Shown piece by piece: positions 10,693 to 64,000 of a stretch of 64,000 bases of DNA (the stretch's first letter is position 1; every line of letters starts with the position of its first letter). The stretch lies in contig CAZGGU010000003.1 in NCBI GenBank assembly GCA_964525395.1, forward strand, positions 2,883 through 66,882, read 5' to 3'. A program made the translations under genes and the position numbers. The notes beneath the pieces are model-generated. The model saw nothing but the letters and a program-made list of their open reading frames with translations, was not told where the DNA came from and ran no database searches. This DNA comes from an uncultured Gammaproteobacteria bacterium. GTDB lineage: Bacteria; Patescibacteriota; Microgenomatia; Levybacterales; UBA12049.

Positions 10693-11454
10693 GTGGCTAA
10701 TAAAGTTTTTCTTTCTGTGGTTATTCCTTCATACAACGAGAAGGTCAATTTACGTAAAGGCGTCTTAGATAAGATTGATCACTACCTCTCCAAACAGAAG
10801 TTTTCCTACGAAGTAATCATTGTAGATGATGGTTCAGATGATGGTTCTGCTGAGTTTGCTGAGAAATATGCGAAAGAAAATAAGCATTTCGAGCTCATAA
10901 AAAGTCCTCATATGGGAAAAGCTGGAGCAGTCACACAGGGAATGCTTAGAGCTGAGGGGGAGTATAGATTGTTTACTGATATGGATCAGGCTACTCCGAT
11001 TGAAGAAGTAGAGCAGCTCTTGCCATTTTTCGAAGAAGATTTTGATATCGTAATTGGTTCTCGAAAAACCAGTAGAAAAGGTTCTCCGTTGTCTCGAAGA
11101 GTTATGTCTAGAAGTATGATTGTTCTTCGTAAAGCATTGGTGGGCATGAATAATATCGAAGATACCCAGTGTGGATTTAAAATGTTTAAAGCCAGTGCAT
11201 CTGACAGAATCTTTAAAAGAATTAATGAGCTGCATCAAGGGTTCACGAAAATTTCCGGATCTAATGTGACTGCTGGATTCGATGTCGAGCTTCTAATCTT
11301 GGCTACTAAAATGGGATACAGAATTATTGAAGTTCCAGTGGAGTGGTATTATGTAGAAACCAGAAGAGTAAGTCCGATTTCAGATTCCATAAATGGTTTA
11401 AAAGATTTAGTTTCTATCAGCATGAGTAAGCATGCAGGTAAGTACAATTCATGA
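10693..11454 (+). CDS. GT2 polyprenyl-phosphate sugar synthase-like glycosyltransferase (Dpm1/CsbB/GtrB-like)
   Basis: LSVVIPSYNE...YEVIIVDDGSDDGS...TDMDQATP...IVIGSR. The track ORF starts at TTG 10678. GTG 10693 is preferred because of the -10 position. Confidence 0.8.
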   Translation: MANKVFLSVVIPSYNEKVNLRKGVLDKIDHYLSKQKFSYEVIIVDDGSDDGSAEFAEKYAKENKHFELIKSPHMGKAGAVTQGMLRAEGEYRLFTDMDQATPIEEVEQLLPFFEEDFDIVIGSRKTSRKGSPLSRRVMSRSMIVLRKALVGMNNIEDTQCGFKMFKASASDRIFKRINELHQGFTKISGSNVTAGFDVELLILATKMGYRIIEVPVEWYYVETRRVSPISDSINGLKDLVSISMSKHAGKYNS

Positions 11455-12629
11455 TTAAGAGAAATTTAGCCTACACGTATTTTATTGCAGTTATTGCACT
11501 TTTCTTCTATTCTTTTACTCAAGTTGACCTAAGCTTAACTTTATCTAGTTCTGGTATTGCTCAAACAATTCAAAAAAGTTTTCAGCAGATCGGCTATTTT
11601 AATCGGCCACTTTCCACAGAAATATATATTATTATCTTAATTGCTCTTTTTGGGTTTTATATTTATTTTTTATATTTAGCTTATAAAAATAAGATTGATA
11701 AGAAAAAAATTTGGATACTTATTATTGGCACAGCCATAATTCTGGCACCTTCGTATACAGCATTTTCCTACGACATTTTTAACTATATATTTGATGCAAA
11801 AATAATTACCCATTATCACCAAAATCCTTATTTTCATAAAGCGCTAGACTATCCGGGAGATCCAATGCTTTCCTTTATGCACTGGACTCACAGGCTCTAT
11901 CCATATGGCCCCGCTTGGTTAGTAGTGACTGTTCCATTTTCATTTATAGGAATGAATATTTTCGTAGTAACTTATTTCTTGTTTAAGTTATTGATAGTCG
12001 CTTTTTATCTAGGGTGCGTTTATTTAATCGGTAAAATATCTCAAAAAATCGATCCTAAATCAGAAAAGTTTAATTTAATTTTATTTGCATTAAATCCTTT
12101 GGTAATAATTGAAGCATTAGTGACTTCTCATAATGATGTGGCGATGATTTTTTTAGCGCTTTTTGGAGTTTTTTTGTTCTTTTTAAGAAAAAGAATTTGG
12201 GCAATAATACTAATAATTATTTCTGCAATGATAAAGATACCGACTTTAGTTCTTCTTGCGCCCATTGTAATATCGTTTGCGCCAAATATTAAAGAAAGAC
12301 TTGATGACCAGAAATATATGTGGTTATTTTTGTTGTTCTCAGTTGGGGGGCTTATTTATTCTATGACCAAGCTTGAAATTCAACCGTGGTATTTCTTATG
12401 GGTGTTGCCATTCGCATGCTTACTTAAGCCAAACAGATATATAATTGCCTTAATAATTGGAATCACCTTCGGACTACTTATCCGTTATGCTGAATTTCTT
12501 TTTTATGGAAATTGGGACGATGTGATCTTGCGAAACAGTATGACGATTGCTGCGATACTTTTTCCAATCTCTTTAGTTTGTATTTATGATTTTCTTCCAA
12601 AAAATTTAAAAGTTGGAAGCAAAAAGTAA
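11451..12629 (+). CDS. polytopic membrane protein (about 10 TM), likely GT-C-like glycosyltransferase or accessory protein
   Basis: 392 aa and highly hydrophobic. Start overlaps the preceding stop. Confidence 0.55.
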   Translation: MIKRNLAYTYFIAVIALFFYSFTQVDLSLTLSSSGIAQTIQKSFQQIGYFNRPLSTEIYIIILIALFGFYIYFLYLAYKNKIDKKKIWILIIGTAIILAPSYTAFSYDIFNYIFDAKIITHYHQNPYFHKALDYPGDPMLSFMHWTHRLYPYGPAWLVVTVPFSFIGMNIFVVTYFLFKLLIVAFYLGCVYLIGKISQKIDPKSEKFNLILFALNPLVIIEALVTSHNDVAMIFLALFGVFLFFLRKRIWAIILIIISAMIKIPTLVLLAPIVISFAPNIKERLDDQKYMWLFLLFSVGGLIYSMTKLEIQPWYFLWVLPFACLLKPNRYIIALIIGITFGLLIRYAEFLFYGNWDDVILRNSMTIAAILFPISLVCIYDFLPKNLKVGSKK

Positions 12630-12632
12630 ACT

Positions 12633-14189
12633 ATGTATAATCAAATGATGGAAATGATACTGAAATATAAAAAAGAAATTTTAGCAGCTGTTGGGCTTAT
12701 TATTTTATATTTTGTAACACGCCTTGTTTTGCTCGGAAATTTCCCAATCTTCACAGATGAGGCAATTTATATTCGTTGGACACAAATTGCTGCCAATGAC
12801 GCAACCTGGAGGTATATTTCTTTGACGGACGGAAAGCAGCCTATGTTTGTTTGGTTGGGAATGCCACTGCTTAAGTTTATTTCTGATCCACTGGTTGCGG
12901 GTAGATTAGTTTCGGTGGCAGCAGGTTTTTTTACGTTAATTGGATTATTTCTTCTTACTTATGAACTGTTTAAAAATAGATTTACAGCGTTTCTCGTCTC
13001 CCTTTTATATTTAGTTTTCCCCTTCGCAGTAGTTTATGACAGAATGGCTCTGTATGATAGTTTGGTGGCAGCATTTGCTGTATGGGCGATTTATTTTTCA
13101 GTACTTTTAGTCAGAAAAGTAAGATTAGACATTGCTCTAATTTTGGGATTTATTATTGGCGGGGGGATGCTGACGAAATCTAATGCTAATTTTAGTATTC
13201 TAATGCTGCCATTTACATTACTTCTTTTTAATTTTAAAGAAAAAAAATGGAAAGCTCATCTAATTAGATGGGGAATTTTTGTTTTACTTGCTGTAGTAAT
13301 GGCAGAAGTCATTTATAACTTTTTAAGACTATCTCCTTTTTTCCACATTATTAAAGAAAAGAATCAGACCTTTATTTATTATCCATTAAGTATTCCAATT
13401 TCTCAAAATATTGAACTTTTCTTTGGAAATCTCAAGGGATTATTAAATTGGCTGCTAACTTATTTAACTCCTGCATATATTGTTTTAATTATTATTTCTA
13501 TTTTTACTTTTAAATTTTGGAGAGAAAGAATATTATTATTTTTATATTTCCTTGCCCCTTTTATGGCACTTGCACTTTTTGGTAAGGTAATCTTCCCAAG
13601 ATTTATTTTCTTCATGAGCATTTATCTTCTGCCGCTTGCTGCTTTTGGTTTAACAATAGCAATTGATTGGGTAAATAAATTTATGAAAGAGAGAAAAATG
13701 AATATGCCCTATGTAATTTCAGCACTGCTTATAATTGTTGTAATTATTTATCCTATTAAAATTTCACTGGATTTTATTTTCAGTCCTGCAAATGCAAAGA
13801 TTGCAGATGCTGATGTGAGGCAGTTGATTTCAGAATGGCCAGCAGGGGGAGGAGTGAAAGAAAGTGTGGAGTTTTTCGAAAATGAGTCTAAAAAAGGAAA
13901 AATCTTAGTAGCAACTGAGGGAACATTTGGTCTTATGCCAGGAGCACTAGATATCTATTTAGGAGATAATCCAAATATCAAGACTGTAGGAATTTGGCCA
14001 ATCGAGCAGTTCCCTGAGGAGCTAAGTGAATCCGCTAAGACGATGCCTGTGTACTACGTGTTCTATCAACCGTGTCCTTCATGTGAATTCTCAGGAGATG
14101 CTCCTAATGAATATCCTTTAGAGTTGGTAAAGCAATATAAGAAAGCAGATAATGTTTATTACTCAATCTATAAAGTGAAAAATCAATAA
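12633..14189 (+). CDS. GT-C family membrane glycosyltransferase (ArnT/PMT-like, GT39/GT83)
   Basis: N-terminal loop FTDEAIYIRWTQ...DGKQPMFVW resembles the ArnT/PMT DE...Y...KPP motif. About 11 TM plus a C-terminal soluble domain. TATAAT at 12636 suggests an internal start around ATG 12645/12648. Confidence 0.65.
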   Translation: MYNQMMEMILKYKKEILAAVGLIILYFVTRLVLLGNFPIFTDEAIYIRWTQIAANDATWRYISLTDGKQPMFVWLGMPLLKFISDPLVAGRLVSVAAGFFTLIGLFLLTYELFKNRFTAFLVSLLYLVFPFAVVYDRMALYDSLVAAFAVWAIYFSVLLVRKVRLDIALILGFIIGGGMLTKSNANFSILMLPFTLLLFNFKEKKWKAHLIRWGIFVLLAVVMAEVIYNFLRLSPFFHIIKEKNQTFIYYPLSIPISQNIELFFGNLKGLLNWLLTYLTPAYIVLIIISIFTFKFWRERILLFLYFLAPFMALALFGKVIFPRFIFFMSIYLLPLAAFGLTIAIDWVNKFMKERKMNMPYVISALLIIVVIIYPIKISLDFIFSPANAKIADADVRQLISEWPAGGGVKESVEFFENESKKGKILVATEGTFGLMPGALDIYLGDNPNIKTVGIWPIEQFPEELSESAKTMPVYYVFYQPCPSCEFSGDAPNEYPLELVKQYKKADNVYYSIYKVKNQ

Positions 14190-15851
14190 ATGAGAAAAGT
14201 ATTTATTTTTTATTTTTTTGTATTAGTTTTCTCACTGTTAATTTCTCTCCCTCTCTTAATTCCATATTTTCATCCCGGATATTTCCCTACTCATGATGGC
14301 GAATGGGCAGTAGTGCGTTTGGCGGATATGTTTCGTGAGGTAAAAGACTTGCAGTTTCCTCCACGATTTAGTGCAAATTTGAATTTCGGCTATGGCTATC
14401 CTCTCTTTAATTTCGCATATCCTCTTCCATATTATATGGGAGTATTCATTCATTCAGTCGGGTTTAACTTCGTCGACACCATAAAAATAATCTTTGCTGC
14501 CTCAATTCCTTTGTCTGCATTCTTTATGTTTCTGGCTTCACGTTCTATTTGGAAAAATGATTATGCTGGAATAATTAGTGCAGTTTTATATTTATATTTT
14601 CCATACCGATTAGTAGATCTTTATGTGCGAGGATCCATTGGGGAGTCAGTGACTTTTGTATTGTTCCCAATTATTTTATTCGCGCTAAGTAAATTAAATG
14701 AGAAGCCAAAAGCATGGGGTTATGTGTTGCTTGGAGGTGTTTCTTTTGGTTTATTAATTTTGGCTCACAATATTATGTCAGTGTTGTTTAGTATTTCAGT
14801 TCTTATTTTCTTTTTGGCATCTCTTATTTCAGGAAGTAAAAAGATTTTTTGGTCATATGTTTTTACTGGTGGTTTAGGTTTCATTCTTTCTGCATTTTTC
14901 TGGATACCAGCGCTTCTTGAGAAAAATAATATTTTGCTTTCTGTTGTTCCTATTTCTGATCGAAATTTATATTTCGTAAACATAAAACAATTGCTTTTTT
15001 CTCCATGGGGCTATGGGGTGCCTACAGATATACAAAACGGATTTACTTATCAAGTGGGCTGGCCATTCTTATTAGTTTTATTATTAGCTTTACTAATTAT
15101 TGCTTATAAAGCATTCCAAAAAATAAAAATTGATGAGATGGATAAATTTTCCTTGGTAATCCTTATAGGAATATTAGTCTTTTCAATCCTAATGTTCTCT
15201 TTCACGAAACCTATTTGGAAACTTCCTATGCTTTCTGAGATTAATTATCCTTGGACAATTCTTTCTCAAATTGGTTTATTAACTTCAATGCTCGCGGGAT
15301 ATTTAGTGCTGGGTAAGATTTCAAGATATGTAGCATTTGGGATCGCGCTTTTAGCTCTTCTTTTGTATTTACCACTTGCTAAGCCATCAGTTTATTTTGA
15401 TAAAGGTGACGGTTTTTATTTTACAAATCAAGGGACCACCACGTCATCAAGTGAGTTAATGCCGCTCTGGGTAAAATCTCATCCAGTTTCAAGCCCAGTA
15501 GAGAAGATTGAAATATTAAAAGAGAAAGGGAAAATCGAAAATTTAATGGTTAAGTCGAACAAGATTATATTTAATGCAAATCTTGAAAATCCAGCGACTG
15601 TACGAATAAATACTATTTATTATCCAGGGTGGAAAATTACAAATAATGGAAAACCTGTAGAAATTAATTATCAAAATCAGCACGGCGTGATGGAGGTTGA
15701 TCTTCCTCAGGGAGCAAATATTGTTGAAGCAAAGTTCGGGGAAACAAATTTACGTTTGCTTGCTGACTTAATGAGCTTAGTGGGTATTGGTGTTGTTATC
15801 GTTGTTGCAATATATTTAATTGTCCCTAAAATTAAAAAATGGAAAAAGTAA
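14190..15851 (+). CDS. YfhO-like polytopic membrane protein (GT-C fold)
   Basis: HDGEWAVVRLADMFRE...FPPRFSANLNFGYGYPLFNFAYP resembles the YfhO N-terminal loop motif (remembered, not searched). Paralogue of the next gene. Confidence 0.6.
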   Translation: MRKVFIFYFFVLVFSLLISLPLLIPYFHPGYFPTHDGEWAVVRLADMFREVKDLQFPPRFSANLNFGYGYPLFNFAYPLPYYMGVFIHSVGFNFVDTIKIIFAASIPLSAFFMFLASRSIWKNDYAGIISAVLYLYFPYRLVDLYVRGSIGESVTFVLFPIILFALSKLNEKPKAWGYVLLGGVSFGLLILAHNIMSVLFSISVLIFFLASLISGSKKIFWSYVFTGGLGFILSAFFWIPALLEKNNILLSVVPISDRNLYFVNIKQLLFSPWGYGVPTDIQNGFTYQVGWPFLLVLLLALLIIAYKAFQKIKIDEMDKFSLVILIGILVFSILMFSFTKPIWKLPMLSEINYPWTILSQIGLLTSMLAGYLVLGKISRYVAFGIALLALLLYLPLAKPSVYFDKGDGFYFTNQGTTTSSSELMPLWVKSHPVSSPVEKIEILKEKGKIENLMVKSNKIIFNANLENPATVRINTIYYPGWKITNNGKPVEINYQNQHGVMEVDLPQGANIVEAKFGETNLRLLADLMSLVGIGVVIVVAIYLIVPKIKKWKK

Positions 15852-17545
15852 AAAAACACATATTTTTTATTCTAGTAATCCTGCTTAGTTTTTTTGCTAT
15901 TGCTGCGCTTTTGCAGCCAGGTTTTTTTCCAATTCACGACGATGAGCAAGTCGGGAGACTTTATGAGTTAAATTATTCGCTTGAATCATTACACATTCCT
16001 CCAAGAATTTCTCAGAATTTAGGCTTCGGATATGGATATCCATTTTTTAATTTTTATCCCTCTTTTGTTTATTATGTAGGTGAGATATTTGTTCTACTTG
16101 GTTTTTCCTACATTGTCTCGATAAAAATAATGGTTGGCTTAGGTTTTGTTTTATCCGCATTGTTCATGTACTTATTCTCACGTCGGCATATAGGTGAGTT
16201 AGGAGGGCTGGTGGCATCTGTTTTGTATTTATATGCACCTTACCACAGCTTAGACGCTTATGTAAGGGGAGCATTTCCTGAATTTTGGTCCTTTGTTTTT
16301 ATTCCTGCTGTATTTTGGGCAATTGATAGGACTTATAAAAACAGTTCAGTAGGAAACATAGTTTTATTGGGATTCTTGGGAGCATTCCTAATGCTTACTC
16401 ATAATCTGATTACTCTAATGTCGATTCCTTTTTTCTTTTTATATTATTTATTCATTCTTTATAAAAATAAAGAAAAAAAGAATATCACTGTCTCACTTAT
16501 TTCGGGAGGGATTATCGCACTATTATTATCTGCGTATTTTTGGATTCCGGCAATTCTAGAAAATAAATATACAATGGTGAGTTTACTTACTAATCAATTA
16601 GCTAGTTATGGATTGCATTTCGTATCACTTCCACAGTTTATTAATTCTCCTTGGGGGTATGGTGGTTCCATTTTGGGGCCAATGGACGGATTTTCATTAG
16701 AGATAGGAAAGATTCAGTTAATTTTAGCTGGAGCCGTCGGAATATTTATTTTAATTAGTATTGCTCGAAAAAAATACAAAATCGATATTGCTTTACTTTT
16801 TCTTATTATGTTTGCTCTGTCTGTATTTTTGCAGTCATATTATTCAAAATTTATTTGGGATCATATATTTGCTCTTTCATATATTCAGTTTCCATGGAGA
16901 TTCATGCTTTTTTCTGTATTTACCTCAGCTTTTCTCGGAGGATATTTATTCTCTTTGAAATTTGACTCTCGACTTAAATATATCTTCGCAACAGGACTTA
17001 TTATTGGAACAATAATTTTTTATGGAAGTTTGTTTCAGCCATCTAAATACCTGACTTCAGTCACCGACAAAGATTATATTGATCAATCAGTAATACGATG
17101 GAAAACAAGCGCAATGGCTTTTGAGTACGTTCCTGCGGGAATTGCTACCAAGAATTCGAGCTTGAATACGACAATTGTGGATATTGATCAGTCAGGAGTT
17201 GCAAAAGAAACTGCAACAGCGCTTGATGAGAATACTCTTGTAAATACATTGGTAGATAAGCCACAGTATAAAAAGATTGAGATTAATTCGGAAAAGGGTG
17301 GAAAAGTAAGAATAAATACATTTTCATTCCCAGGATGGAAGGTATTTATTAATGACCGTGAGACAGTATATAATGATGAAAATAAATTGAAATTGATCGA
17401 TATTACTGTCCCGGAAGGGAAATCGATAGTCGAAGTAAAGTTGACTGACACAAGTATTCGCCTAGTTGCTAACTTGTTAACTTTAATTGGATTGATTCTT
17501 GTAATTATTTCAGTTCCATTTTATTCTAGGAAAGTGAATTTATGA
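15839..17545 (+). CDS. YfhO-like polytopic membrane protein, paralogue of 14190-15851
   Basis: HDDEQVGRLYELNYSLESLHIPPRISQNLGFGYGYPFFNFYP. Similar C-terminal YYPGWK...VEVK region. Confidence 0.6.
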   Translation: MEKVKKHIFFILVILLSFFAIAALLQPGFFPIHDDEQVGRLYELNYSLESLHIPPRISQNLGFGYGYPFFNFYPSFVYYVGEIFVLLGFSYIVSIKIMVGLGFVLSALFMYLFSRRHIGELGGLVASVLYLYAPYHSLDAYVRGAFPEFWSFVFIPAVFWAIDRTYKNSSVGNIVLLGFLGAFLMLTHNLITLMSIPFFFLYYLFILYKNKEKKNITVSLISGGIIALLLSAYFWIPAILENKYTMVSLLTNQLASYGLHFVSLPQFINSPWGYGGSILGPMDGFSLEIGKIQLILAGAVGIFILISIARKKYKIDIALLFLIMFALSVFLQSYYSKFIWDHIFALSYIQFPWRFMLFSVFTSAFLGGYLFSLKFDSRLKYIFATGLIIGTIIFYGSLFQPSKYLTSVTDKDYIDQSVIRWKTSAMAFEYVPAGIATKNSSLNTTIVDIDQSGVAKETATALDENTLVNTLVDKPQYKKIEINSEKGGKVRINTFSFPGWKVFINDRETVYNDENKLKLIDITVPEGKSIVEVKLTDTSIRLVANLLTLIGLILVIISVPFYSRKVNL

Positions 17546-18252
17546 AAAAGTTGGATTCTTTATCAATCTTTTTTCCTTTTTGGAATGAAGGCAAAAATGT
17601 AGAAAATGTCGTAATGAGTGCAATTCCAGTAGCGAAGAAGATTGCGAAAAAATGGGAGATACTGATTATTGATGACGGCTCTAGAGATAACACCTTGGAT
17701 GTAGCGAAGAAGATTGCGAAAAAAGAACCTAATGTCAGAGTTATTTCCCACAGTCCTAACAGAGGTTACGGTGCTGCTCTTAAAGAAGGTTTTGAAAATG
17801 CGAAATATGATTATGTAGTGTTTACTGATGGAGATGCTCAATTCGATTTCGCAGAAATTGATAATTTCATTGAAGAAATAGATAAATGCGATATTGTTAT
17901 TGGTTATCGTAAGAAGCGACAAGATAATATCATTCGCCATATTTTAATGAATATGCTTAAAGCTTGGGATTATATTTTCTTCGGATTTTGGTTTAAAGAT
18001 ATAGATTGCGGATTTAAAATGTTTAAAAAAGAAGCCTTGGTTGAAATAATGCCATTTAGAAGTGAGGGAGCGATGATTACCACAGAAATTTTGGCAAAAT
18101 CAGTAAGAAAGAGGCTGAAAATTAAAGAAGTCGAGGTCACTCATTATCCTCGAAAATTTGGCAACCAGACAGGAGCCAATTTGGCTGTTATAATTAGAGC
18201 AGTCCTCGAAAGTCTGATACTTTGGTGGGACATAAGAAATAAAAGGATTTAA
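17542..18252 (+). CDS. GT2 polyprenyl-phosphate sugar synthase-like glycosyltransferase
   Basis: ILIIDDGSRDNT...GYGAALKEGF...YVVFTDGDAQFD. Contains an in-frame 24-bp direct repeat. Confidence 0.8.
   Translation: MKKLDSLSIFFPFWNEGKNVENVVMSAIPVAKKIAKKWEILIIDDGSRDNTLDVAKKIAKKEPNVRVISHSPNRGYGAALKEGFENAKYDYVVFTDGDAQFDFAEIDNFIEEIDKCDIVIGYRKKRQDNIIRHILMNMLKAWDYIFFGFWFKDIDCGFKMFKKEALVEIMPFRSEGAMITTEILAKSVRKRLKIKEVEVTHYPRKFGNQTGANLAVIIRAVLESLILWWDIRNKRI
17631..17726 (+). repeat. 24-bp exact direct repeat GTAGCGAAGAAGATTGCGAAAAAA (17631-17654 and 17703-17726), in frame, encoding VAKKIAKK twice
   Basis: Read directly in the sequence. The copies are 72 nt apart. Confidence 0.8.
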
Positions 18253-56497: not shown

Positions 56498-57461
56498 TTC
56501 TGAAATTTTAATTACAGGGGGTGCTGGATTTATTGGTAGTAGTCTTGCTGATGAATTAGTAAAGCAAGGAGCAACGGTTACCATTCTTGATGCAATGATT
56601 GCCCCATATGGTGGCAATATGTTTAATATCAAACAAATAAAAAATAAAGTTAATTTTATTAAAGGAGATGTGAGAAATCACAAAGCTGTGGAAAAAGCAG
56701 TCAAAGGAAAAGATTTTGTTTTTCACCTGGCTGGACAGACAGGCAGAAATATTTCTATGGAGAACCCTATTCTAGATACCGAAATAAATATAATAGGGAC
56801 ATTAAATGTAATTGATGGTATTAGAAGGCAAATGAAAAAACCTAAACTTATTTTTGCTGGAAGTAGGGGAGCTTGTGGAATGCCAACATATTTACCAGTT
56901 AATGAGAAACATCCAGATAACCCTAGGGATGTCTATGGAATTAATAAAATGTCAGCTGAAAAAATGTGTCTACTTTTAGGAAAAGAAAACGATTTTGAAG
57001 TAGTATCCTTGCGACTTAATAATGTTTACGGACCAAGATGCCAAATAAAAAGTAACCATTATGGAACTATTAATTTGTTTGTTTCTTACGCATTGCAGGG
57101 AAAAGTAATGCCAATTTATGGAGATGGTTTACAAACAAGAGATTATGTGTACGTAACAGACGTAGTGAATGCTTTTATTAGTTCTATGAATCCAAAAGCA
57201 AATAATAATATGTATTATGTGGGAACTGGAGTTCCTACTTCGTTACTGGAAATAGTAGGGATAATTCAAGAAAAGATTCCTGATGCCAAATTTAAAAAGG
57301 TACCTTTTCCAAAAGAACTTAAAAGTGTAGATTTTCCAGAGTTTTATTCCGACTCATCGTTTATAGAAAAACAACTTGGTTGGAAACCAAAAATTAATAT
57401 AGAAAAAGGTATTGAAGAGACTATAGTGTTTTATAAAGAGAACTTGAAATACTATTTATGA
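56484..57461 (+). CDS. NAD-dependent nucleotide-sugar epimerase/dehydratase (extended SDR)
   Basis: ILITGGAGFIGSSLADELVKQGATVTILD. Catalytic YGINK. Confidence 0.8.
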   Translation: MKINNSEILITGGAGFIGSSLADELVKQGATVTILDAMIAPYGGNMFNIKQIKNKVNFIKGDVRNHKAVEKAVKGKDFVFHLAGQTGRNISMENPILDTEINIIGTLNVIDGIRRQMKKPKLIFAGSRGACGMPTYLPVNEKHPDNPRDVYGINKMSAEKMCLLLGKENDFEVVSLRLNNVYGPRCQIKSNHYGTINLFVSYALQGKVMPIYGDGLQTRDYVYVTDVVNAFISSMNPKANNNMYYVGTGVPTSLLEIVGIIQEKIPDAKFKKVPFPKELKSVDFPEFYSDSSFIEKQLGWKPKINIEKGIEETIVFYKENLKYYL

Positions 57462-57679
57462 AACCACAAGATATATTATTCTTAATAATTCTAGGTATAC
57501 TTTTATACAAAAGAGATTCTAGGTTGTTTGTCTGGGCAGGACTCATCTCTCTTTTAATCTCGATCCCTTTATTCGCAAAATGGATTTTCTTTACTGCTGA
57601 GAGATTTACTCTATATGCATTTGTTTTTCTTTTAATCGCGGTTCTTTTCAATTTAGCTAAAATTAGGCATAATAAATGA
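57458..57679 (+). CDS. small two-TM membrane protein (73 aa)
   Basis: Two hydrophobic helices. Start overlaps the upstream stop. Confidence 0.4.
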   Translation: MKPQDILFLIILGILLYKRDSRLFVWAGLISLLISIPLFAKWIFFTAERFTLYAFVFLLIAVLFNLAKIRHNK

Positions 57680-57747: not shown

Positions 57748-58293
57748 ATGAAAATCGGAATTGATATTAGCCAGCTTGCTTATCCAAATACAGGCGTAGC
57801 TAATTATCTCGAAAATCTTATTGATTCATTGTTGAAGGTGGACTCAAAGAATGAATATGTTCTTTTCTATTCATCGATGAGAAAAAATTTACAATTTACA
57901 ATTTTCAATTTTCAATCAAATCCAAATGTTTCAATTAAAAAATTTAAATTACCACCGACTTTATTAAACCTGTTATGGAATAAATTACATATTCTGCCAA
58001 TTGAAAGAATTATTGGTCCAGTAGACTTGTTTATCACTTCCGACTGGACAGAGCCTCCTGCGAAAGCTAAGAAGGCTACGATCATTTATGACATGATTGT
58101 TTATAAAAATCCTGAAGAAACAGCCAAAAGTATTGTAGAGACTCAAAAGAGAAAACTAAAATGGGTTAAGAAAGAATCAGACATAATATTTGCCATCTCT
58201 AAATCTACTAAGAAAGATATTGAAGAAATATTAGGAATTGATTCATCAAAAATTAAAGTAATTTATCCAGGGCTGAATAAATTAACTAGTTAA
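57748..58293 (+). pseudogene. GT4 glycosyltransferase N-terminal-domain-only fragment (C-terminal catalytic half missing)
   Basis: MKIGIDISQL... ends at ...KVIYPGLNKLTS, the inter-domain linker position in the intact neighbouring GT4 genes. Confidence 0.45.
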
Positions 58294-58324: not shown

Positions 58325-58714
58325 ATGAAGATTACCAAATATGAGGAGTTGGAAATTTGGAATCTCAGCATCGAGATTGCATTAAAAGTTTATGAATTAA
58401 CTAGCAAGGGGAAATTCATGAAAGTTTATGGCTTAAGAGATCAAATTCGGCGTGCATCTGTTTCAATCAGTTCAAATATTGCAGAAGGTTTTGAAATGAA
58501 TAATAACAACGATTTTATTAGATTTTTGAGAATAGCTAAGAGTTCGGCTGGAGAAGTTAGAAGTCAACTTTATATTTCGTATGAGCTTGGTTATATTAAT
58601 TCAAGAGAATATAATGAATTAACCGATAAATTAATAACTTTATCCTCACAGAACGGAAAATTTATTAGTTATCTTTTGAGCAAGAAGAATAATAAAGAAT
58701 TTTTGAACCGATGA
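58325..58714 (+). CDS. four-helix-bundle protein (so-called 23S rRNA intervening-sequence protein family)
   Basis: 129 aa. YEELEIWNLSIEIALKVYELTSK...DQIRRASVSISSNIAEGF...SAGEVRSQLYIS typical of that family. Confidence 0.75.
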   Translation: MKITKYEELEIWNLSIEIALKVYELTSKGKFMKVYGLRDQIRRASVSISSNIAEGFEMNNNNDFIRFLRIAKSSAGEVRSQLYISYELGYINSREYNELTDKLITLSSQNGKFISYLLSKKNNKEFLNR

Positions 58715-58723
58715 AAGAACTTT

Positions 58724-58736: not shown

Positions 58737-58751
58737 TTATTTAATTATCCG

Positions 58752-59882
58752 ATGAAGATTGCAATTAATGGTTACGAAGCCGCGGTTCCACGTTTTGGTT
58801 ATGATGAGATAACAGGACTTCCTAATAGGGTTGGTTCTAGTGCATATGTATTTGAATTACTCCTCAACCTGAACAGACTAGATCATGATAATGAATACGT
58901 AATTTATTTGCCGGTCAATCCGACAAAGGATATGCCTGCTGAATCTGAAAAATGGAAATACAATGTTCTTCCTGCGAGAAAACTTTGGACCCTTACTGCT
59001 CTTTCTCGAGAATTTGCATTGAAAAAACCATACTATGATGCTTTCTGGAATCCTGGACATTATCTTCCTCCCTTTGCTCCGAAAAACTCTATCGTCTCTA
59101 TACTCGATTTGTCCTATGTATATTTCCCAGAACTATTTGCTAAAACTGACCTTCTGAAGCTAAATAAGTGGAGTAAATATTCAGCAAAGCACGCAAAAAA
59201 GATTCTTACGATAAGTATTAGTAGTAAGAATGATATAATTAAAGAGTACAAGATTGACTCTGGAAAGGTAGAAGTAATCTATCCTGGAATAGGCATTGAA
59301 TCTAGAATTAAGAATAATGAATTAAGCATGGAGAATTTATCTAAAAAATATAGCGTCACTAGTCCTTATATTTTATTTGTTGGTACACTTCAGCCTCGTA
59401 AAAATGTAGCTCGTCTCATTGAAGCCTTTTCAAAACTTGATAGTGATATCTCTTTAGTTGTGATTGGAAAAAAAGGATGGCAATATGAAGAAATATTGGC
59501 TGCTCCAGCTAAGTTTGGCGTAGAGTCTAAAGTAAGATTTCTTCATAACGTAACAAGTGAGGATCTTCCATCCTTTTATAAAAATGCCGAGTTTTTTGTG
59601 CTCCCTAGTCTTTATGAAGGTTTTGGTCTACCTGTGCTTGAGGCAATGCAACTTGGTTGCCCAGTAATAACCAGTGACATTTCTAGCCTTCCAGAAGCGG
59701 GAGGGAATGCAGCTCTTTACTTTGATCCAAAAAACGTAGACGATATAAAAGAGAAAATGCAAAAAGTGTTGAATGACAAAGATTTAAGAAAAAAAATGAT
59801 TGACAAAGGGCATGATCAGGTGAAGAAATTTTCATGGGAAAAATCTGCTAAAGAAACATTGGCTATTATTGAATCTTTATGA
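58752..59882 (+). CDS. GT4 (GT-B) glycosyltransferase
   Basis: MKIAINGYEA...EGFGLPVLEAMQLGCPVITSDISSLPE. Full-length two-domain architecture. Confidence 0.85.
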   Translation: MKIAINGYEAAVPRFGYDEITGLPNRVGSSAYVFELLLNLNRLDHDNEYVIYLPVNPTKDMPAESEKWKYNVLPARKLWTLTALSREFALKKPYYDAFWNPGHYLPPFAPKNSIVSILDLSYVYFPELFAKTDLLKLNKWSKYSAKHAKKILTISISSKNDIIKEYKIDSGKVEVIYPGIGIESRIKNNELSMENLSKKYSVTSPYILFVGTLQPRKNVARLIEAFSKLDSDISLVVIGKKGWQYEEILAAPAKFGVESKVRFLHNVTSEDLPSFYKNAEFFVLPSLYEGFGLPVLEAMQLGCPVITSDISSLPEAGGNAALYFDPKNVDDIKEKMQKVLNDKDLRKKMIDKGHDQVKKFSWEKSAKETLAIIESL

Positions 59883-60430
59883 AAAGAGTAATGAGAAGAG
59901 GAACGACATTAATTCGTGAATTCGAAAATATGATTATGGCTTGGAGTGGCCATGTTCCATCGCACCATTTCCGCCGTTTTATTTATAGACTTGGGGGAAT
60001 GAGAATTGGTAAAGGTTCTACGATTCACTGCGGTGCTAAGTTTTACAACGCTCATAAAATAAGAATTGGGTCTGACACTATTATAGGCGAAGATGCAGTG
60101 CTTGATGGGCGAGATATGCTTGTGATTGGAAGCCATGTAGATATTGCTTCAGAAGTAATGATTTATAATGCTGAGCATGATGTAAACGATGCATCTTTCT
60201 CAGCAATTACTGGAGCTGTTGAGGTAGAAGATTATGTGTTCATTGGTCCGCGAGCAATAATTCTCCCAGGAGTAAAGATTGGAAGAGGTGCCGTAATAGG
60301 CGCTGGGGCAGTAGTCACTAAAGATGTAGAGCCGTTTAAAATAGTAGGTGGTGTGCCAGCAAAAGAAATTGGTGAGAGAACGAATAAAGATCCTCATTAC
60401 AGACTGGGAAGAGCTGCTTGGTTTAGATAA
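59879..60430 (+). CDS. hexapeptide-repeat (left-handed beta-helix) sugar O-acetyltransferase, WbbJ/WcaF-like
   Basis: IGEDAVLDGRDMLVIGSHVDIASEVMIYN...IGPRAIILPGVKIGRGAVIGAGAVVTKDV. GC looks higher than the flanks. Confidence 0.8.
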   Translation: MKRVMRRGTTLIREFENMIMAWSGHVPSHHFRRFIYRLGGMRIGKGSTIHCGAKFYNAHKIRIGSDTIIGEDAVLDGRDMLVIGSHVDIASEVMIYNAEHDVNDASFSAITGAVEVEDYVFIGPRAIILPGVKIGRGAVIGAGAVVTKDVEPFKIVGGVPAKEIGERTNKDPHYRLGRAAWFR

Positions 60431-61302
60431 TGAAATTATCAATTGTTATTCTTAGCTACAATACTCCGGATTTGATAAAAAATTGCTTAGATTCTCTCGA
60501 AAAATTCTACAAAGATGATTTAGGGAAAAATATTGAAGCTATTGTGGTAGATAATAAATCAGAAAAAGAGAACTTAGACAAAACTAAAAAATTTGTTTCA
60601 AGTAAAAAATTTGCATATTTTATCGAAAACAGTGAAAATGCAGGTTTTGGAAAAGGCTGTAATTTAGGCGTAGCTAAAGCGAAAGCAGACTATGTTTTAT
60701 TTTTAAATTCCGATGCAGAAGTAATTGACTCTAATCTGTTAGAAATGTCAGGTTTCCTTGATAAGAATCATGATATTGGAATCTTGGGTGGGAAAATTTT
60801 AAATCCTGATAAATCTCCTCAGAAATCTGCTGGCAAATTTTATAATCTATTAAATTTTTTAATTATGATTTTAGGCGGAGAAAAATTTGGTTTGCTTAGA
60901 AAAAGTCCAGAAAAAATTGAAAAAGTTGATTGGGTAAGTGGCGCATTTATGATGGTAAATAAAAAAATGTTTAATCTGATTGGTGGATTTGATAAGAATA
61001 TTTTTATGTACATGGAGGATATGGAGATTTCTTTTAAGGCAAAAAAGAAGGGAATTGAAACCTACTTTTACCCAGATGCGAAAGTAATTCATAAAGAATA
61101 TGGAAGCAGTAATCGTGGATTTGCCATTGTAAATATTTATAAAGGACTTTTATATTTTTACAAAAAATATAAAAGTCCTTGGGAATACGGGATTGTTAAA
61201 TTATGTTTATATACCAAAGCAATGCTTATTTACTTATTGGGGAAATTGACTAATAATAGTTATTACGTAAAAACATACGGGGAAGCATTAAAGATTATAT
61301 GA
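60430..61302 (+). CDS. GT2 glycosyltransferase
   Basis: LSIVILSYNTPDLI...EAIVVDNKSEKEN...LFLNSDAEV...YMEDMEISF. Confidence 0.8.
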   Translation: MKLSIVILSYNTPDLIKNCLDSLEKFYKDDLGKNIEAIVVDNKSEKENLDKTKKFVSSKKFAYFIENSENAGFGKGCNLGVAKAKADYVLFLNSDAEVIDSNLLEMSGFLDKNHDIGILGGKILNPDKSPQKSAGKFYNLLNFLIMILGGEKFGLLRKSPEKIEKVDWVSGAFMMVNKKMFNLIGGFDKNIFMYMEDMEISFKAKKKGIETYFYPDAKVIHKEYGSSNRGFAIVNIYKGLLYFYKKYKSPWEYGIVKLCLYTKAMLIYLLGKLTNNSYYVKTYGEALKII

Positions 61303-64000
61303 AAAAAGGTTTAGCTTGGCTTTGGGACAATATTTTATTTATCGAAACAATCTTTCTTTTAGTTTTTATTCCCCTTTTTCCCAAAATCCCAATTTTAGAT
61401 GTGAGAAACACATGGGTTTATATTCGTGCTGAAGATTTTATAGTTTTCTTTGTATTAATCTCATGGTTAATCTTGCTAATTAAGAATAAAGTTACCCTCA
61501 GAACCCCAATCACATTTCCAATACTCATTTTTTGGATTATTGGTCTTATCGCAACTGTTCATGGAGTTCTCATTATTTTTCCAGAAATTGCCAATGCCTA
61601 TCCGAATGTGGCATTTCTCAGCCTGCTTCGACATATCGAATATATGAGCATTTTCTTCATCGCTTTTGCTGGAATTAGAGACAAAAATCAGCTTAAGTGG
61701 GTTATTGCAGCTTTATTTGTAACTCTTCTTGGAGTCATTCTTTATGGATTTGGACAGAAATTCCTTGGATTTCCAGCTTATTTAACGATGAATGAGGAAT
61801 TTGCTAAAGGAATTCCTATTAAACTATCTGAACTTTCGCGTGTTCCTTCTACTTTCGCAGGACATTATGATTTAGCAGCTTATCTAGTATTAATAATTCC
61901 AATTATGGCAAGTTTATTCTTTGGAGTTAAAAATTATATAGCAAAAGCTTCATTTGTAGTTATCTCATTTTTGGGATTAATTCTTCTATTTATGACGGTT
62001 TCAAGAGTTTCATTCGCTGTTCTTTTTATCGCGCTTTTTGCAGTTTTATTTTTCCAAAAAAGAAAATTGGCACTTTTGGCCATTCCTTTGGGAATATTAA
62101 TGATCGTAGGCTTATTAACATTCCAGTCTTCTCTTACTGACAGATTTAAAAGTACAGTTTCAGAAGTGGATGTTTTAGTGGATGCAAAAACAGGAGATTC
62201 TCTCGGCCATGTGAGATTTGTAAACAAGGAAGAGCTAAAAGACAAAGTAGTTCTGCAAAGAAGAGTAAAAGATAAGACTGAACTAGAAGTAGCACTTAGT
62301 GGAGAAGATCCAAATGCTTATTCCACAACATCGGCTATTTTACCGTTTAAATATATTCCTGAAGAAGTGCCTTTGGTAACAGCAGTGAATATTTCAACCG
62401 GCGAAAGTCTTTCTCAAGGAACAGGCTATACAAATTTGTATCTTTCTCCTGTGGTAAAGCGTTTAGGAAATTTTTATTATGAACTTCCACCTGATTTTAA
62501 AGCCTCTCCTTCAGCGCAGATTCTAGTATTACATGGTGACTTTATTGTAAAGCGCGCGTCTGCTTATGATTTATCATTTACCACTCGTTTCCAGGGTGAA
62601 TGGCCAAATGCAATCCAAGCATTTAAGAGAAATCTTTTGGTGGGCAGTGGATATGGGTCAGTTAGTTTGGCAGTAGATAATAACTATTTAAGAATTTTAG
62701 GTGAAATTGGAGTTCTTGGATTCGTTTCATTTTTGTTAATCTTTATTTCCCTGGGAATTTATATAAGAAAAGTATTCTCTGATATCGATTCTATATTGGT
62801 TAGAAGTTACATAATTGGATTTGGGGCAGGTCTTATTGGTTTAGCATTAAATGCTACTTTGATCGACGTTTTCGAAGCATCTAAGATAGCATTTCTTCTT
62901 TGGACACTCACTGGTGTAACATTTGGAATATTAGTTTTCTATCAGAAGAAAAGTTTTAGTCTCAAAGATGAACTTATCAGAGTAGCCACTTCTTCTTACG
63001 CTATTTTAATTTATCTTTTCCTGTTTACTTTTGTAATTTTCGTACCAACCCTAGGAAATAATTTCGTGGGTGATGATTTCACATGGCTTAGATGGGTAGC
63101 TGATTGCAAAAATGCATGTGGTCCGGTTCATTCGCTTTCAAATTATCTGATTAATGCTGATGGATTTTTCTATCGACCGGGCACTAAAGCTTATTTCTAT
63201 TTCATGTATAACTCATTTTGGCTTAATCAAGTTGTTTATCATTTGGTTTCATTAGTCTTACATTTCGTGGTCGCAGCTCTATTTTATTTACTTGCTAGAA
63301 AAATTCTAAAAAATAATTTGCTTGCAACAATCGCTGCATTCTTGTTCGTAATTATGAGTGGATCTGCTGAAGCAGTACTTTGGGTTTCTTCAACGGGATA
63401 TTTATTTAATGCAGTTTTCGGTTTGATCGGTCTACTTTCATTTATCTATTGGGACGAGAAAAAGAAAATATATTGGTTAATAATTTCGATCGTTTCATTT
63501 TCTGCTGCGATGCTCTTTCATGAATTAGGTGTAGTTCTACCGTTCCTAGTCCCGGTTTACCTTTGGTATAAAGATTTTTCTATTAAAGGTTTGAAAAATA
63601 TTGTGAAGAGATGGGATGTATTAATCCTCTTGGTGCCAATGATTTTATATATTCTTCTTAGATTTATCGCTGGAAGTCATTGGTTTAACGGAGATTATAG
63701 CTATGATCCTCTTATGCTTCCGTTTAACTTTATAGGTAATTCAATTGGATACCTAATGCTTAGTACAGTAGGATCAATGTCGTTGTCTATCTATGAAAGC
63801 ATTAGGATGGTTGCAAGACAAAATATACTTGCAATGCTAGTGATTATTCCAATATTCGTTGCTGGAGTTTATTTAGCAATTCGATATGGCAAGAAATATA
63901 TTACAAATGAAGAAAAGAAGACGATAGTATTTGGAATTTTGTTCTTTATCGTGGCACTTTTGCCGTTCATTGCTCTGGGAAATATAACCTCAAGATATAG
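61299..64000 (+). CDS. Wzy/O-antigen-ligase-like polymerase domain fused to a C-terminal GT-C-like membrane domain; partial, runs off the window end
   Basis: Stop-free frame for at least 900 codons from an ATG overlapping the previous stop (ATGA); not in the supplied ORF track. Wzy_C-like motif GSGYGSVSLAVDNNYLRILGEIGVLG. Large hydrophilic loop around aa 280-440. Second module with DDFTWLRW...YHLVSLVLHFVVAALFYLLA. Confidence 0.7.
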   Translation, partial: MKKGLAWLWDNILFIETIFLLVFIPLFPKIPILDVRNTWVYIRAEDFIVFFVLISWLILLIKNKVTLRTPITFPILIFWIIGLIATVHGVLIIFPEIANAYPNVAFLSLLRHIEYMSIFFIAFAGIRDKNQLKWVIAALFVTLLGVILYGFGQKFLGFPAYLTMNEEFAKGIPIKLSELSRVPSTFAGHYDLAAYLVLIIPIMASLFFGVKNYIAKASFVVISFLGLILLFMTVSRVSFAVLFIALFAVLFFQKRKLALLAIPLGILMIVGLLTFQSSLTDRFKSTVSEVDVLVDAKTGDSLGHVRFVNKEELKDKVVLQRRVKDKTELEVALSGEDPNAYSTTSAILPFKYIPEEVPLVTAVNISTGESLSQGTGYTNLYLSPVVKRLGNFYYELPPDFKASPSAQILVLHGDFIVKRASAYDLSFTTRFQGEWPNAIQAFKRNLLVGSGYGSVSLAVDNNYLRILGEIGVLGFVSFLLIFISLGIYIRKVFSDIDSILVRSYIIGFGAGLIGLALNATLIDVFEASKIAFLLWTLTGVTFGILVFYQKKSFSLKDELIRVATSSYAILIYLFLFTFVIFVPTLGNNFVGDDFTWLRWVADCKNACGPVHSLSNYLINADGFFYRPGTKAYFYFMYNSFWLNQVVYHLVSLVLHFVVAALFYLLARKILKNNLLATIAAFLFVIMSGSAEAVLWVSSTGYLFNAVFGLIGLLSFIYWDEKKKIYWLIISIVSFSAAMLFHELGVVLPFLVPVYLWYKDFSIKGLKNIVKRWDVLILLVPMILYILLRFIAGSHWFNGDYSYDPLMLPFNFIGNSIGYLMLSTVGSMSLSIYESIRMVARQNILAMLVIIPIFVAGVYLAIRYGKKYITNEEKKTIVFGILFFIVALLPFIALGNITSRY

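Follow-up and report, generated by a model that had tools for sequence, protein, structure and literature searches.

Does a run of glycan-assembly genes that starts directly behind a tRNA gene and continues on one strand for about 53 kb mark a genomic island, a misassembly or a resident part of the chromosome, and what could it build? The question is raised by a 64,000-nt stretch of contig CAZGGU010000003.1 (assembly GCA_964525395.1; the whole stretch is called the window below), in which a tRNA-Glu(CTC) gene is followed up to the window edge by genes for glycosyltransferases (GTs), flippases and sugar-tailoring enzymes. An original prediction, made from the letters of the window, had described a surface-glycan supercluster and named the tRNA at its boundary as a classic landmark of island insertion. 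Working directly from gene families, folds, synteny, the junctions of conserved and variable segments and the position of a phosphoglycosyltransferase gene in relatives, we conclude that the window probably covers some 53 kb of a longer chromosomal locus for a cell-envelope glycan, inherited vertically and arranged in three parts. The Lon protein encoded at 7719-10091 is 76% identical to that of a Candidatus Levyibacteriota metagenome-assembled genome (MAG), with other Microgenomates as the next relatives; the organism is a Levybacteria-like bacterium (Microgenomates, candidate phyla radiation (CPR)/Patescibacteria).

From 10678 to 64000 there are 46 consecutive open reading frames (ORFs) on the + strand, the last of them open at the window edge. 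The predicted run of ~47 genes on a single strand behind tRNA-Glu is thereby confirmed, as is its sole exception, the gene at 21413-21643 on the - strand, which is a real gene with a DUF5652 match of 72.4 bits. The genes are tightly packed: 32 of the 45 junctions overlap, five have a gap of 0-10 bp and six a gap of 11-60 bp, and the two largest gaps measure 68 bp and 281 bp (the latter contains the - strand gene). The coding fraction of the run is 0.996 (99.6%). tRNA-Glu was the sole match in an Rfam scan of the window, which returned neither riboswitches nor RNA elements of other kinds. For the first gene, the predicted GTG at 10693 is the probable start; it gives a protein of 253 aa as in relatives.

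Families were called from Pfam and NCBIfam scans of all window ORFs, covering those of at least 70 aa. The run encodes 13 GT2 enzymes (PF00535) where at least 14 had been claimed; four of the five predicted GT4 enzymes are full length, and the fifth is a 181-aa N-terminal half. Nine GT-C-like proteins have a Pfam match (GT87, one; PMT_2/PMT, five; PTPS_related, two, one of them 0.8 bit below the cut-off; YfhO, one). Profile-profile or fold comparison added four further GT-C modules (31671, 50512, 54485 and the C-terminal half of 61299), giving a total of 13 against the predicted minimum of ten. There are two MOP/Wzx-like flippases, one Wzy_C/WaaL-like module and a tailoring set consisting of GalE, one further short-chain dehydrogenase/reductase (SDR), two DegT proteins, an FdtD-like bifunctional enzyme, a WcaF-like acetyltransferase and three methyltransferases. 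In all, about 30 glycosyltransferase genes are packed into 53 kb of a host genome of about 1 Mb. The family content thus backs the description of a very large surface-glycan locus, and it fits the two parallel assembly routes that had been proposed, one of the GT-C/polyprenyl-phosphate-sugar type and one of the Wzx/Wzy_C type. The view that almost all of the genes serve glycan assembly stands by the family scans, with the exception of 58325-58714, which encodes a 23S_rRNA_IVP protein. The scans also agree with the prediction that the window holds neither an initiating transferase of the WbaP/WecA type (PF02397/PF00953) nor a Wzz/Wzc chain-length regulator.

We then compared the locus with related loci (numbered with the prefix L where they have to be told apart). 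The genes from sample SRR23592399 match those of the window at 94% identity for Lon and at 83-93% for the first five of the cluster. The Levyibacteriota MAG (L004) has the order Lon, tRNA-Glu(CTC), GT2, GT87, PMT_2, PTPS, YfhO, PMT_2, PTPS, with the first seven genes kept. In GCA_016307145.1 (JADMIO011419501.1, 89.7 kb), Nth, DUF1003, Lon and tRNA-Glu are followed by 19 of the 20 left-arm genes, collinear through GalE, with protein identities of 34-71% and the DUF5652 gene alone absent; the right arm follows ~50 kb downstream on the same strand. The left arm of GCA_964637955.1 (CAZWXQ010000003.1, 299.9 kb) is nearly collinear and has DUF5652 in the same place on the - strand; towards GalE, two of the three PMT_2 paralogues have changed places, and GalE is preceded by a DegT gene. 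Both genomes have the two arms on a single contig and in the same orientation, separated by about 50-60 kb, and the locus between the outermost conserved genes spans ~62 kb in the former and at least 73 kb in the latter. The right arm is present in all 80 metagenome loci as far as each extends. The left arm of GCA_964637955.1 also has two small insertions relative to the window, with genes for a 710-aa MecA_N + PBP_dimer protein and a DUF2079 membrane protein (L166 18056-20188; L172 2870-4270).

These comparisons bear on the proposal that the cluster is a horizontally acquired island integrated at tRNA-Glu. The tRNA does lie exactly at the left boundary, the GC content of the cluster is below that of the Lon region, the interior varies between close relatives, and relatives show rearrangements of the Lon-tRNA segment (tRNA inverted, extra ORFs). 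However, the first 20 genes after the tRNA are syntenic in relatives, with proteins 51-93% identical, and the tRNA adjoins the orthologue of the first gene, GT2_01, in L004, L006, L166, L168 and L169, with GT87, PMT_2 and onward genes following likewise. No integrase, recombinase or transposase was found among the window ORFs (the distal end of the locus lies beyond the window), and no stretch of 13 nt or more of the tRNA is repeated in the window, on the same or the opposite strand, the far boundary again being outside it. Composition argues in the same direction: GC at third codon positions (GC3) is 0.262 in the left arm and 0.261 in the right arm, equal to the 0.257 of the housekeeping flank, and only 41.9-57.5 kb is lower (0.230). 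The variable segment begins ~25 kb from the tRNA, and the rearrangements at the tRNA are confined to its Lon side, leaving the cluster side unaffected. Conservation and synteny across relatives had been named in the original prediction as the outcome that would argue against an island; since this is what the relatives show, we regard the island as refuted and very improbable, and the tRNA-Glu is a conserved landmark, not an island boundary.

The tRNA itself has been turned around in some relatives. In the closest, the same 75 nt are inverted in place by reversal of a ~100-bp segment with collinear flanks, and inversion is seen in three relatives (L168 3644-3718, L166 6561-6635, L006 10262-10336; the corresponding window region is 10554-10649). 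The relatives with an inverted tRNA have extra - strand ORFs without a Pfam match (293 aa; 220 and 379 aa) between Lon and the tRNA. In the window, L169 and L004 the tRNA has the + orientation and these ORFs are missing.

Because the contig was assembled from a metagenome, and assemblers could be misled by paralogous GT genes, we also considered that the same-strand run might be a chimera of unrelated glycan loci joined in assembly or binning. This is hardly credible: the same order is found in the independent assemblies GCA_016307145.1, GCA_964637955.1 and JACPLF010000010.1, in an 83-kb Logan contig (SRR14001311) and in many JGI contigs. Moreover, protein identity among the window paralogues is only 27-37%, and the one stretch of nucleotide similarity between them (62 bp at 84%) is too short for misjoins. 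A chimeric assembly was rejected on the synteny in independent assemblies.

The resident locus is laid out in three parts: a left arm (10.7-35.2 kb), a variable centre (35.2-57.4 kb) and a right arm from 57,458. This layout follows from gene replacement, diverging gene order and low GC inside conserved flanks. In the closest right-arm relative (L164, from SRR23592399), GT4N, GT4_d, the acetyltransferase, GT2_13 and the fusion protein are 84-91% identical, whereas unk670, the last GT-C-like protein of the centre, is only 39% identical, compared with 83-94% for arm proteins in that sample; upstream of unk670 lie different genes (GT90, methyltransferases, GT4). Nucleotide similarity of the window to the SRR23592399 locus stops at 57,748. 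Gene order in the two reference genomes departs from that of the window at GalE or shortly before it; some genes in the 35-44 kb region, including orthologues of GT4_b, recur there or in other relatives in a changed order, and 44-57.4 kb gives mostly paralogue-level matches only. The inner segment at 41.9-57.5 kb has the lowest GC of the window (0.289, GC3 0.230; arms 0.33 and 0.26). This suggests that the centre behaves as a serotype-like cassette. Hypervariable surface-glycan genes are commonly attributed to phage pressure (PMC9426551); in a cell-attached bacterium, host recognition is an equally possible driver.

If the locus continues beyond the window, what of the missing initiating enzyme? 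In relatives, the fusion gene that is cut by the window edge (unk900) is followed in fixed order by a PMT_2-type GT-C, GT4, GT2, GT4, GT4, a ManC-like nucleotidyltransferase, a PF02397 phosphoglycosyltransferase and, where the flank reaches far enough, DUF4012. The PF02397 gene was found in 31 related loci, where it lies 6.3-9.0 kb (median 6.9 kb) downstream of the unk900 stop; its product is small and scores 210 bits in L086 and L093. Five loci with a 9.5-kb flank but no complete PF02397 gene end inside ManC or inside the PF02397 gene. By this spacing, the initiating enzyme of the present genome most likely lies at about 70.8-73.5 kb in window coordinates. As that is past the end of the 69,295-bp source contig, the contig beyond 64 kb could not reveal it. 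Since relatives carry PF02397 past the fusion gene, the missing initiating transferase is most likely an effect of truncation and not a trait of the pathway. Upstream of the cluster, a 342-aa protein with nine predicted transmembrane (TM) segments (3592-4620, - strand) recalls MraY/WecA-type transferases in size and topology; it has no Pfam match at E<=10, PF00953 included, and was not counted as an initiating enzyme.

The GT-C count includes proteins beyond the reach of Pfam. Five large ORFs without a Pfam match all encode polytopic membrane proteins. Sequence searches of the PDB gave nothing useful for unk900 or its profile, unk670 or its profile, or GT4N, and fold and profile-profile comparison were therefore used instead. 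With hhalign, the unk670 family matched PTPS_related (97.4%, E=1e-11) and unk766 matched the unk670 family (99%, E=9e-18). For unk571, which has no Pfam match even at E<=10, 40 aligned homologues share an invariant HE..PDEFDN motif after TM1. Its AlphaFold2 (AF2) model has a pLDDT of 90.9, and a Foldseek search of the PDB returned GT-C enzymes for all 11 best matches (STT3, AftA, PglB, ArnT; probability 1.0), followed by transporters at probability <0.25. By its modelled fold, unk571 is a GT-C-fold enzyme of a family without a Pfam model. The ORFs at 31671, 50512 and 54485 and the C-terminal half of 61299 have 8-17 TM helices and are similar to solved or curated GT-C enzymes, and an acidic motif lies just after TM1 in 13 of 13 GT-C candidates. 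Among the proteins with a Pfam match, orthologues of the GT87 protein match PF26314 (MptA_B_family); PMT2_a has >2600 homologues, with 50-86% identity among the 120 best listed; the PTPS_a family profile matches YfhO with 98% probability, and PTPS_b is its tandem paralogue (33% identity); and PMT2_b is 34-36% identical to PMT_c and PMT2_d.

Runs of GT-C genes are adjoined by four small GT2s of one subgroup (GT2_01, GT2_02, GT2_06 and GT2_08; 233-258 aa). GT2_01 is followed by GT87, PMT_2 and two PTPS genes, with GT2_02 directly 3' of that run; GT2_06 lies directly 5' of three PMT_2 paralogues and unk571; and GT2_08 lies directly 5' of a PMT_2 gene. Multi-component transmembrane glycosylation systems are recognised by a GT-A enzyme that is paired with a YfhO or PMT_2 GT-C (PMC8035078). 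Each of the four small GT2s gives an almost end-to-end alignment to the models for PpgS, dolichyl-phosphate (Dol-P)-hexose transferase, AglJ and ArnC. GT2_01, whose orthologues adjoining tRNA-Glu in relatives are 62-93% identical, gives near full-length alignments to the PpgS and Dol-P-hexose transferase models, below their cut-offs. The best NCBIfam models of GT2_02 are ArnC (80.7 bits, model 3-211 of 316) and AglJ, and that of GT2_08 is PpgS (model 1-202 of 226), again below cut-off. The best candidate for a polyprenyl-phosphate-sugar synthase is GT2_06, with 115 bits to AglJ (cut-off 325) and, as best solved relatives, the dolichol-phosphate-mannose synthase 5MLZ (residues 1-228, E=1e-14), the GtrB-type 5EKP and ArnC.

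At the other end of the window, the unk900 ORF is 100% identical to a 1066-aa protein (P0001), and in 80 metagenome loci its family retains 50-68% identity over 900 residues, a degree of conservation close to that of Lon. The protein is made up of two modules, one WaaL/Wzy_C-like (~1-550) and interrupted by a beta-rich insert (~287-424), the other of the GT-C type (~560-1066). Intact, it scores 15.7-17.2 bits against Wzy_C (PF04932), below the 31.7 cut-off; with residues 296-417 removed, the score rises to 42.8 bits (model positions 2-149). A stand-alone 505-aa homologue (L012, Roizmanbacteria-like) scores 36.8 bits with PF04932 and aligns to residues 3-547, and the N-terminal module has a WaaL-like fold. 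The C-terminal half has no Pfam match; its residues 591-593 are an invariant GDD, and its profile weakly matches the PMT_2 paralogues. Given the Wzy_C match after removal of the insert and these C-terminal features, we call unk900 a lineage-specific fusion of a Wzy_C/WaaL-type module with a GT-C glycosyltransferase. The Wzy_C family contains ligases as well as polymerases.

How might these parts work together? In what follows, the donors, the flippase assignment, the acceptors (a wall polymer, a lipoglycan or an S-layer or pilin protein) and the operon structure are inferred. The left arm would act as a set of repeated modules, each with a small soluble GT2 beside one to four GT-C enzymes. Each small GT2 would load a sugar onto polyprenyl phosphate inside the cell, and the lipid-linked sugar would then be flipped. 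As there is no GtrA-type flippase, the MOP-type Wzx_a (18252) is proposed for this step. The GT-C enzymes would use the flipped lipid-linked sugars outside the membrane, building or decorating an envelope glycoconjugate. The phosphoglycosyltransferase, ManC, GT4, GT2 and acetyltransferase genes of the right arm lead us to propose that this arm makes a glycan of the undecaprenyl-diphosphate type, initiated by the phosphoglycosyltransferase and built on that lipid. The unk900 fusion could both polymerise or ligate the flipped glycan and add a lipid-phosphate-linked sugar, as one enzyme. The centre would contribute a second Wzx, a possible Wzy, genes for a 3-acetamido-3,6-dideoxyhexose and methyltransferases.

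Several points weigh against this picture of one three-part locus with two cooperating routes. The continuation of the right arm, and the phosphoglycosyltransferase in it, are extrapolated from relatives. The reference contigs were not seen throughout (40.8-48.3 kb of JADMIO011419501.1 and 109.3-123.3 kb of CAZWXQ010000003.1 fall outside the comparison), and the left edge of the variable centre was set using relatives at 50-65% identity only. The small GT2s reach 41-115 bits where the cut-offs for polyprenyl-phosphate-sugar synthases are 325-529, and they do not have the C-terminal TM helices seen in GtrB, ArnC and CsbB; by hydropathy, GT2_01, GT2_02 and GT2_06 have no TM helix and GT2_08 has one doubtful internal segment. 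Mycobacterial PpgS is a precedent for a synthase without TM helices. No GtrA-type flippase (PF04138) was found among the window ORFs of at least 70 aa. The Wzy-type polymerase candidate of the centre, unk388, is named by position and topology alone; it has no Pfam match and no profile match to GT-C families. Finally, promoter and terminator scans at 10-30 kb returned shuffle-level counts (promoters 84 versus 84.4; terminators 11 versus 10.9) and are therefore uninformative on operon structure.

A different product is also conceivable. The locus could serve mainly protein O-glycosylation, with the PMT/PMT_2 enzymes moving sugars onto Ser/Thr of S-layer, pilin or adhesin proteins and no polysaccharide or lipoglycan being made. 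Actinobacterial Pmt and the eukaryotic PMTs do transfer sugar directly from polyprenyl-phosphate-sugar onto Ser/Thr. However, PMT_2 also includes ArnT, GtlB, GacL and CsdD, whose targets are lipid A or wall polymers (PMC8035078), and for relatives of the GT87/MptA_B and YfhO proteins the targets are lipoglycans and teichoic acids. In relatives, the right arm has a phosphoglycosyltransferase, five GT4 and three GT2, a set typical of undecaprenyl-diphosphate oligo- or polysaccharide assembly, and there is no gene for an acceptor protein within the locus. We consider O-glycosylation as the main role unlikely, and return to an envelope glycan locus with two routes, the genes of which are given in Table 1.

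Table 1. Genes of the glycan locus in the window, in order from the tRNA (scores in bits)
Gene	Position	Strand	Assignment	Basis
tRNA-Glu(CTC)	10574..10648	+	tRNA; directly adjoins first cluster gene	ARAGORN and Rfam
GT2_01	10678..11454	+	Left arm (conserved) from here; small soluble GT2, candidate polyprenyl-phosphate-sugar synthase; likely start GTG 10693	PF00535 96.9
GT87	11451..12629	+	GT-C, GT87/MptA_B-like	PF09594 27.7; 8 TM helices
PMT2_a	12633..14189	+	GT-C, PMT_2	PF13231 47.4; DE motif (D42 E43) after TM1
PTPS_a	14190..15851	+	GT-C, PTPS_related/YfhO clan	PF10131 25.6 (cut-off 26.4); invariant D36
PTPS_b	15839..17545	+	GT-C, PTPS_related	PF10131 30.5
GT2_02	17542..18252	+	Small soluble GT2, candidate polyprenyl-phosphate-sugar synthase	PF00535 101
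Wzx_a	18252..19700	+	MOP-family flippase	PF13440 154; 11 TM helices
GT2_03	19754..20668	+	GT2	PF13641 and PF00535; rhamnosyltransferase-like, below cut-off
GT2_04	20673..21416	+	GT2	PF00535 88.8
DUF5652	21413..21643	-	Small 2-TM protein	PF18893 72.4
GT4_a	21698..22822	+	GT4	PF00534 61.3
YfhO	22815..25052	+	GT-C, YfhO family	PF09586 105; 12 TM helices
GT2_05	25049..25981	+	GT2	PF00535 92.6
GT2_06	25978..26679	+	Small soluble GT2, best candidate polyprenyl-phosphate-sugar synthase	PF00535 118.7
PMT2_b	26672..28360	+	GT-C, PMT_2	Pfam; WDE motif
PMT_c	28357..29988	+	GT-C, PMT/PMT_2	PF02366 47.4
PMT2_d	29975..31624	+	GT-C, PMT_2	PF13231 52.1
unk571	31671..33386	+	GT-C-fold enzyme by model, family without Pfam model	Motif, AF2 model, Foldseek
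GT2_07	33386..34240	+	GT2	PF00535 65.8
GalE	34269..35237	+	UDP-glucose 4-epimerase; last left-arm gene	TIGR01179 390.5 (cut-off 262.3)
GT4_b	35234..36286	+	GT4; start of rearranged/variable centre	PF00534 99
unk388	36255..37421	+	9-TM protein	Between GT4 and Wzx; no Pfam match
Wzx_b	37418..38701	+	MOP-family flippase	PF13440 42.9; 12 TM helices
GT2_08	38722..39459	+	Small GT2, candidate polyprenyl-phosphate-sugar synthase	PF00535 68
PMT2_e	39398..40780	+	GT-C, PMT_2	PF13231 46.9; FDE motif
GT4_c	40780..41880	+	GT4	PF00534 116.8
GT2_09	41877..42896	+	GT2	PF00535 73
DegT_a	42806..44068	+	Pyridoxal-phosphate-dependent sugar aminotransferase/dehydrase, RfbH-like	PF01041 224.8; RfbH 233.7 (cut-off 423)
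	44065..44766	+	Class I S-adenosylmethionine (SAM) methyltransferase	PF08241 84.7
GT2_10	44769..45734	+	GT2	PF00535 105.7
GT2_11	45736..46731	+	GT2	PF00535 66.4
FdtD-like	46728..47660	+	Bifunctional N-acetyltransferase/3,4-ketoisomerase	PF05523 159.8 and Hexapep; PDB 4MZU full length, E=3.1e-105
DegT_b	47657..48763	+	Sugar aminotransferase, FdtB-like by position	PF01041 366
GT2_12	48753..49718	+	GT2	PF00535 118
FkbM	49715..50527	+	FkbM-family methyltransferase	TIGR01444 45.1 (cut-off 37.7)
unk766	50512..52812	+	GT-C-like, YfhO/PTPS clan	No Pfam match; 13 TM helices; GGDD motif after TM1
unk320	52793..53755	+	4-TM protein	No Pfam match
	53742..54488	+	Class I SAM methyltransferase	PF13489 69.2
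unk670	54485..56497	+	GT-C-like, PTPS/YfhO clan	hhalign; invariant D34
SDR	56484..57461	+	NDP-sugar (NDP, nucleoside diphosphate) epimerase/dehydratase; last centre gene	PF01370 167; below all NCBIfam cut-offs
unk73	57458..57679	+	Conserved 73-aa 2-TM mini-protein; first right-arm gene	Orthologues
GT4N	57748..58293	+	Stand-alone N-terminal half of GT4 (181 aa)	PF13439 only
23S_rRNA_IVP	58325..58714	+	Four-helix-bundle protein, 129 aa	PF05635 120.7
GT4_d	58752..59882	+	GT4	PF00534 136.9
WcaF-like	59879..60430	+	Hexapeptide acetyltransferase	PF00132; NF007797 107.6 (cut-off 192)
GT2_13	60430..61302	+	GT2	PF00535 72.1
unk900	61299..64000	+	WaaL/Wzy_C-like + GT-C fusion; cut by window edge, stop at about 64499	Full length 1066 aa

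Some neighbouring genes deserve comment. In the left arm, the DUF5652 gene has the same position and strand in L166 and is missing in L169. In the centre, the FdtD-like enzyme and the adjoining DegT_b together supply the predicted 3,4-ketoisomerase, aminotransferase and N-acetyltransferase of a set for a deoxythymidine diphosphate (dTDP)-linked 3-acetamido-3,6-dideoxyhexose (Fuc3NAc/Qui3NAc). For RmlA and RmlB, which would make its dTDP-sugar precursor, the window offers no nucleotidyltransferase, and the SDR at 56484 reaches 151 bits where the RmlB cut-off is 365; both may be encoded elsewhere in the genome. An RmlC-like dTDP-sugar 3,5-epimerase gene lies at 797-1336, 10 kb upstream of the cluster and beside a two-component system (1376-3032), and a dTDP_sugar_isom gene lies inside the variable centre of two relatives (L171 18641-19198; L172 15906-16463). 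The 4-TM protein unk320, to which the Pfam scans assigned no family, accompanies unk766 and unk670 in L093, L096, L098, L101 and L106.

In the right arm, orthologues of unk73 (45-74% identical) lie directly 5' of GT4N in L093, L164 and L165, and GT4_d orthologues (49-85%) occur in every related locus that reaches that position. The half-length GT4N is itself conserved, with orthologues of 174-208 aa in 51 related loci (60-88% identity where measured); at the same position, Roizmanbacteria-like genomes (L012, L014, L019) have a full-length GT4 of 369-379 aa. A pseudogene disrupted by the IVP gene was considered and rejected, as the 51 loci keep the short orthologue mostly without an insertion. 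Speculatively, and by analogy to Alg14 with Alg13, GT4N may be a non-catalytic partner of the GT4 that follows it.

The IVP gene is an insertion in a recurrent hot spot, outside the glycan pathway. The slot between GT4N and GT4_d (58294-58751) is empty in 27 of the 51 related loci, where the two genes overlap or abut. Elsewhere it holds a 23S_rRNA_IVP gene (the window, L116-118, L122-123), a GIY-YIG gene (L164, L137), an NYN-domain gene (L112, L119, L130/131; once beside a weak Bro-N match) or, in L120/121, 3.3 kb with NAD synthase and a membrane protein. The IVP proteins of the window and L117 share ~35% identity, compared with 57-66% for the flanking genes, which suggests repeated insertions or fast evolution.

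On the housekeeping side, DUF1003 paralogues at 4621-5268 and 7020-7520 (both on the - strand; 48% identity over 79 residues) flank SNase and Nth upstream of Lon. In the first ORF of the window (1-757), the reading frame stays open upstream of the ATG at 80 as far as position 2; the gene probably continues past the left edge, so that the window need not begin where the contig does.

The component types of the locus are all known. What is distinct is its scale, its packing on a single strand, its conservation across a CPR lineage, its three-part layout, its GT-C families without a Pfam model and the WaaL-GT-C fusion. A literature search, incomplete in coverage, found no account of this locus or of CPR glycan superclusters. 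We regard it as a solid lead for CPR envelope biology and GT-C enzymology, not as a new principle. CPR/Patescibacteria are ultra-small, mostly uncultured and cell-attached, and their surface chemistry is almost unknown. Given housekeeping-level conservation and the share of several percent of a reduced genome, the glycan product is probably central to the envelope or to host contact. A bolder proposal, possible but doubtful, is that Levybacteria (~1 Mb) devote ~6-8% of their DNA to one locus whose glycoconjugate is assembled largely outside the membrane, mycobacteria-style, by at least 13 GT-C enzymes (including at least two Pfam-less families and the WaaL-GT-C fusion), with a swappable centre giving serotype-like diversity. 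If true, this would be a CPR counterpart of the O-antigen locus, perhaps adapted to attachment to hosts or to escape from phages. The conserved arms could be used as lineage markers and for enzyme discovery, and the centre for strain typing and for studies of phage or host specificity; the fusion and the Pfam-less families add to the lipid-linked-sugar transferases known so far. There is also a point for annotation: where a locus is cut by the window, neither a tRNA at the cluster edge nor a missing initiating transferase counts as evidence for an island or for an unusual pathway.

Among known systems, the closest in logic are those of multi-component transmembrane glycosylation (CsbB/GtcA/YfhO, GtlA/GtlB, Lactococcus lactis CsdA-F, GacI/GacL, Gtr, Arn), in which a GT2 likewise stands beside a YfhO or PMT_2 GT-C. 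The logic that would be shared is loading of lipid phosphate inside the cell, flipping and transfer outside (PMC8035078). Where those systems have single pairs, the present locus has 13 GT-C modules and about four candidate synthases. It has MOP/Wzx proteins and no GtrA-type flippase, its candidate synthases are TM-less, and several of its GT-C families are without a Pfam model.

In mycobacteria and corynebacteria, lipomannan, lipoarabinomannan and arabinogalactan are made by serial GT-C enzymes after cytoplasmic GT4 steps (Ppm1, PimE, MptA/B/C, AftA-D and Emb; PpgS with Rv3779). The present locus resembles these in its many GT-C enzymes, its GT87/MptA_B member, its small GT2s that align to PpgS and its fold matches to AftA and PimE. 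However, it belongs to an unrelated phylum with a ~1-Mb genome and is packed on one strand in one locus rather than scattered, and the likeness is at the level of fold and family only, with no sign of a phosphatidylinositol anchor or of arabinofuranose donors.

With Wzx/Wzy loci for O-antigen, capsule, S-layer glycan or secondary cell-wall polymer it shares Wzx, a Wzy_C-family protein, sets of GT2 and GT4, an FdtD-like enzyme with an aminotransferase, a low-GC cassette swapped among close relatives and a PF02397 initiating transferase, the last of these in relatives. It differs in having no Wzz/Wzc in the window, in ending with DUF4012 in relatives, in a Wzy_C module that has a ~120-aa beta-rich insert and is fused to a GT-C, in conserved arms that far exceed the variable cassette, and in belonging to a group without an outer membrane or lipid A acceptor. 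Compared with the WaaL O-antigen ligase (PDB 7TPJ/7TPG), whose lipid A-core acceptor is not expected in this organism, the unk900 module has 13% identity, an inserted beta-rich domain and a GT-C fused at its C-terminus.

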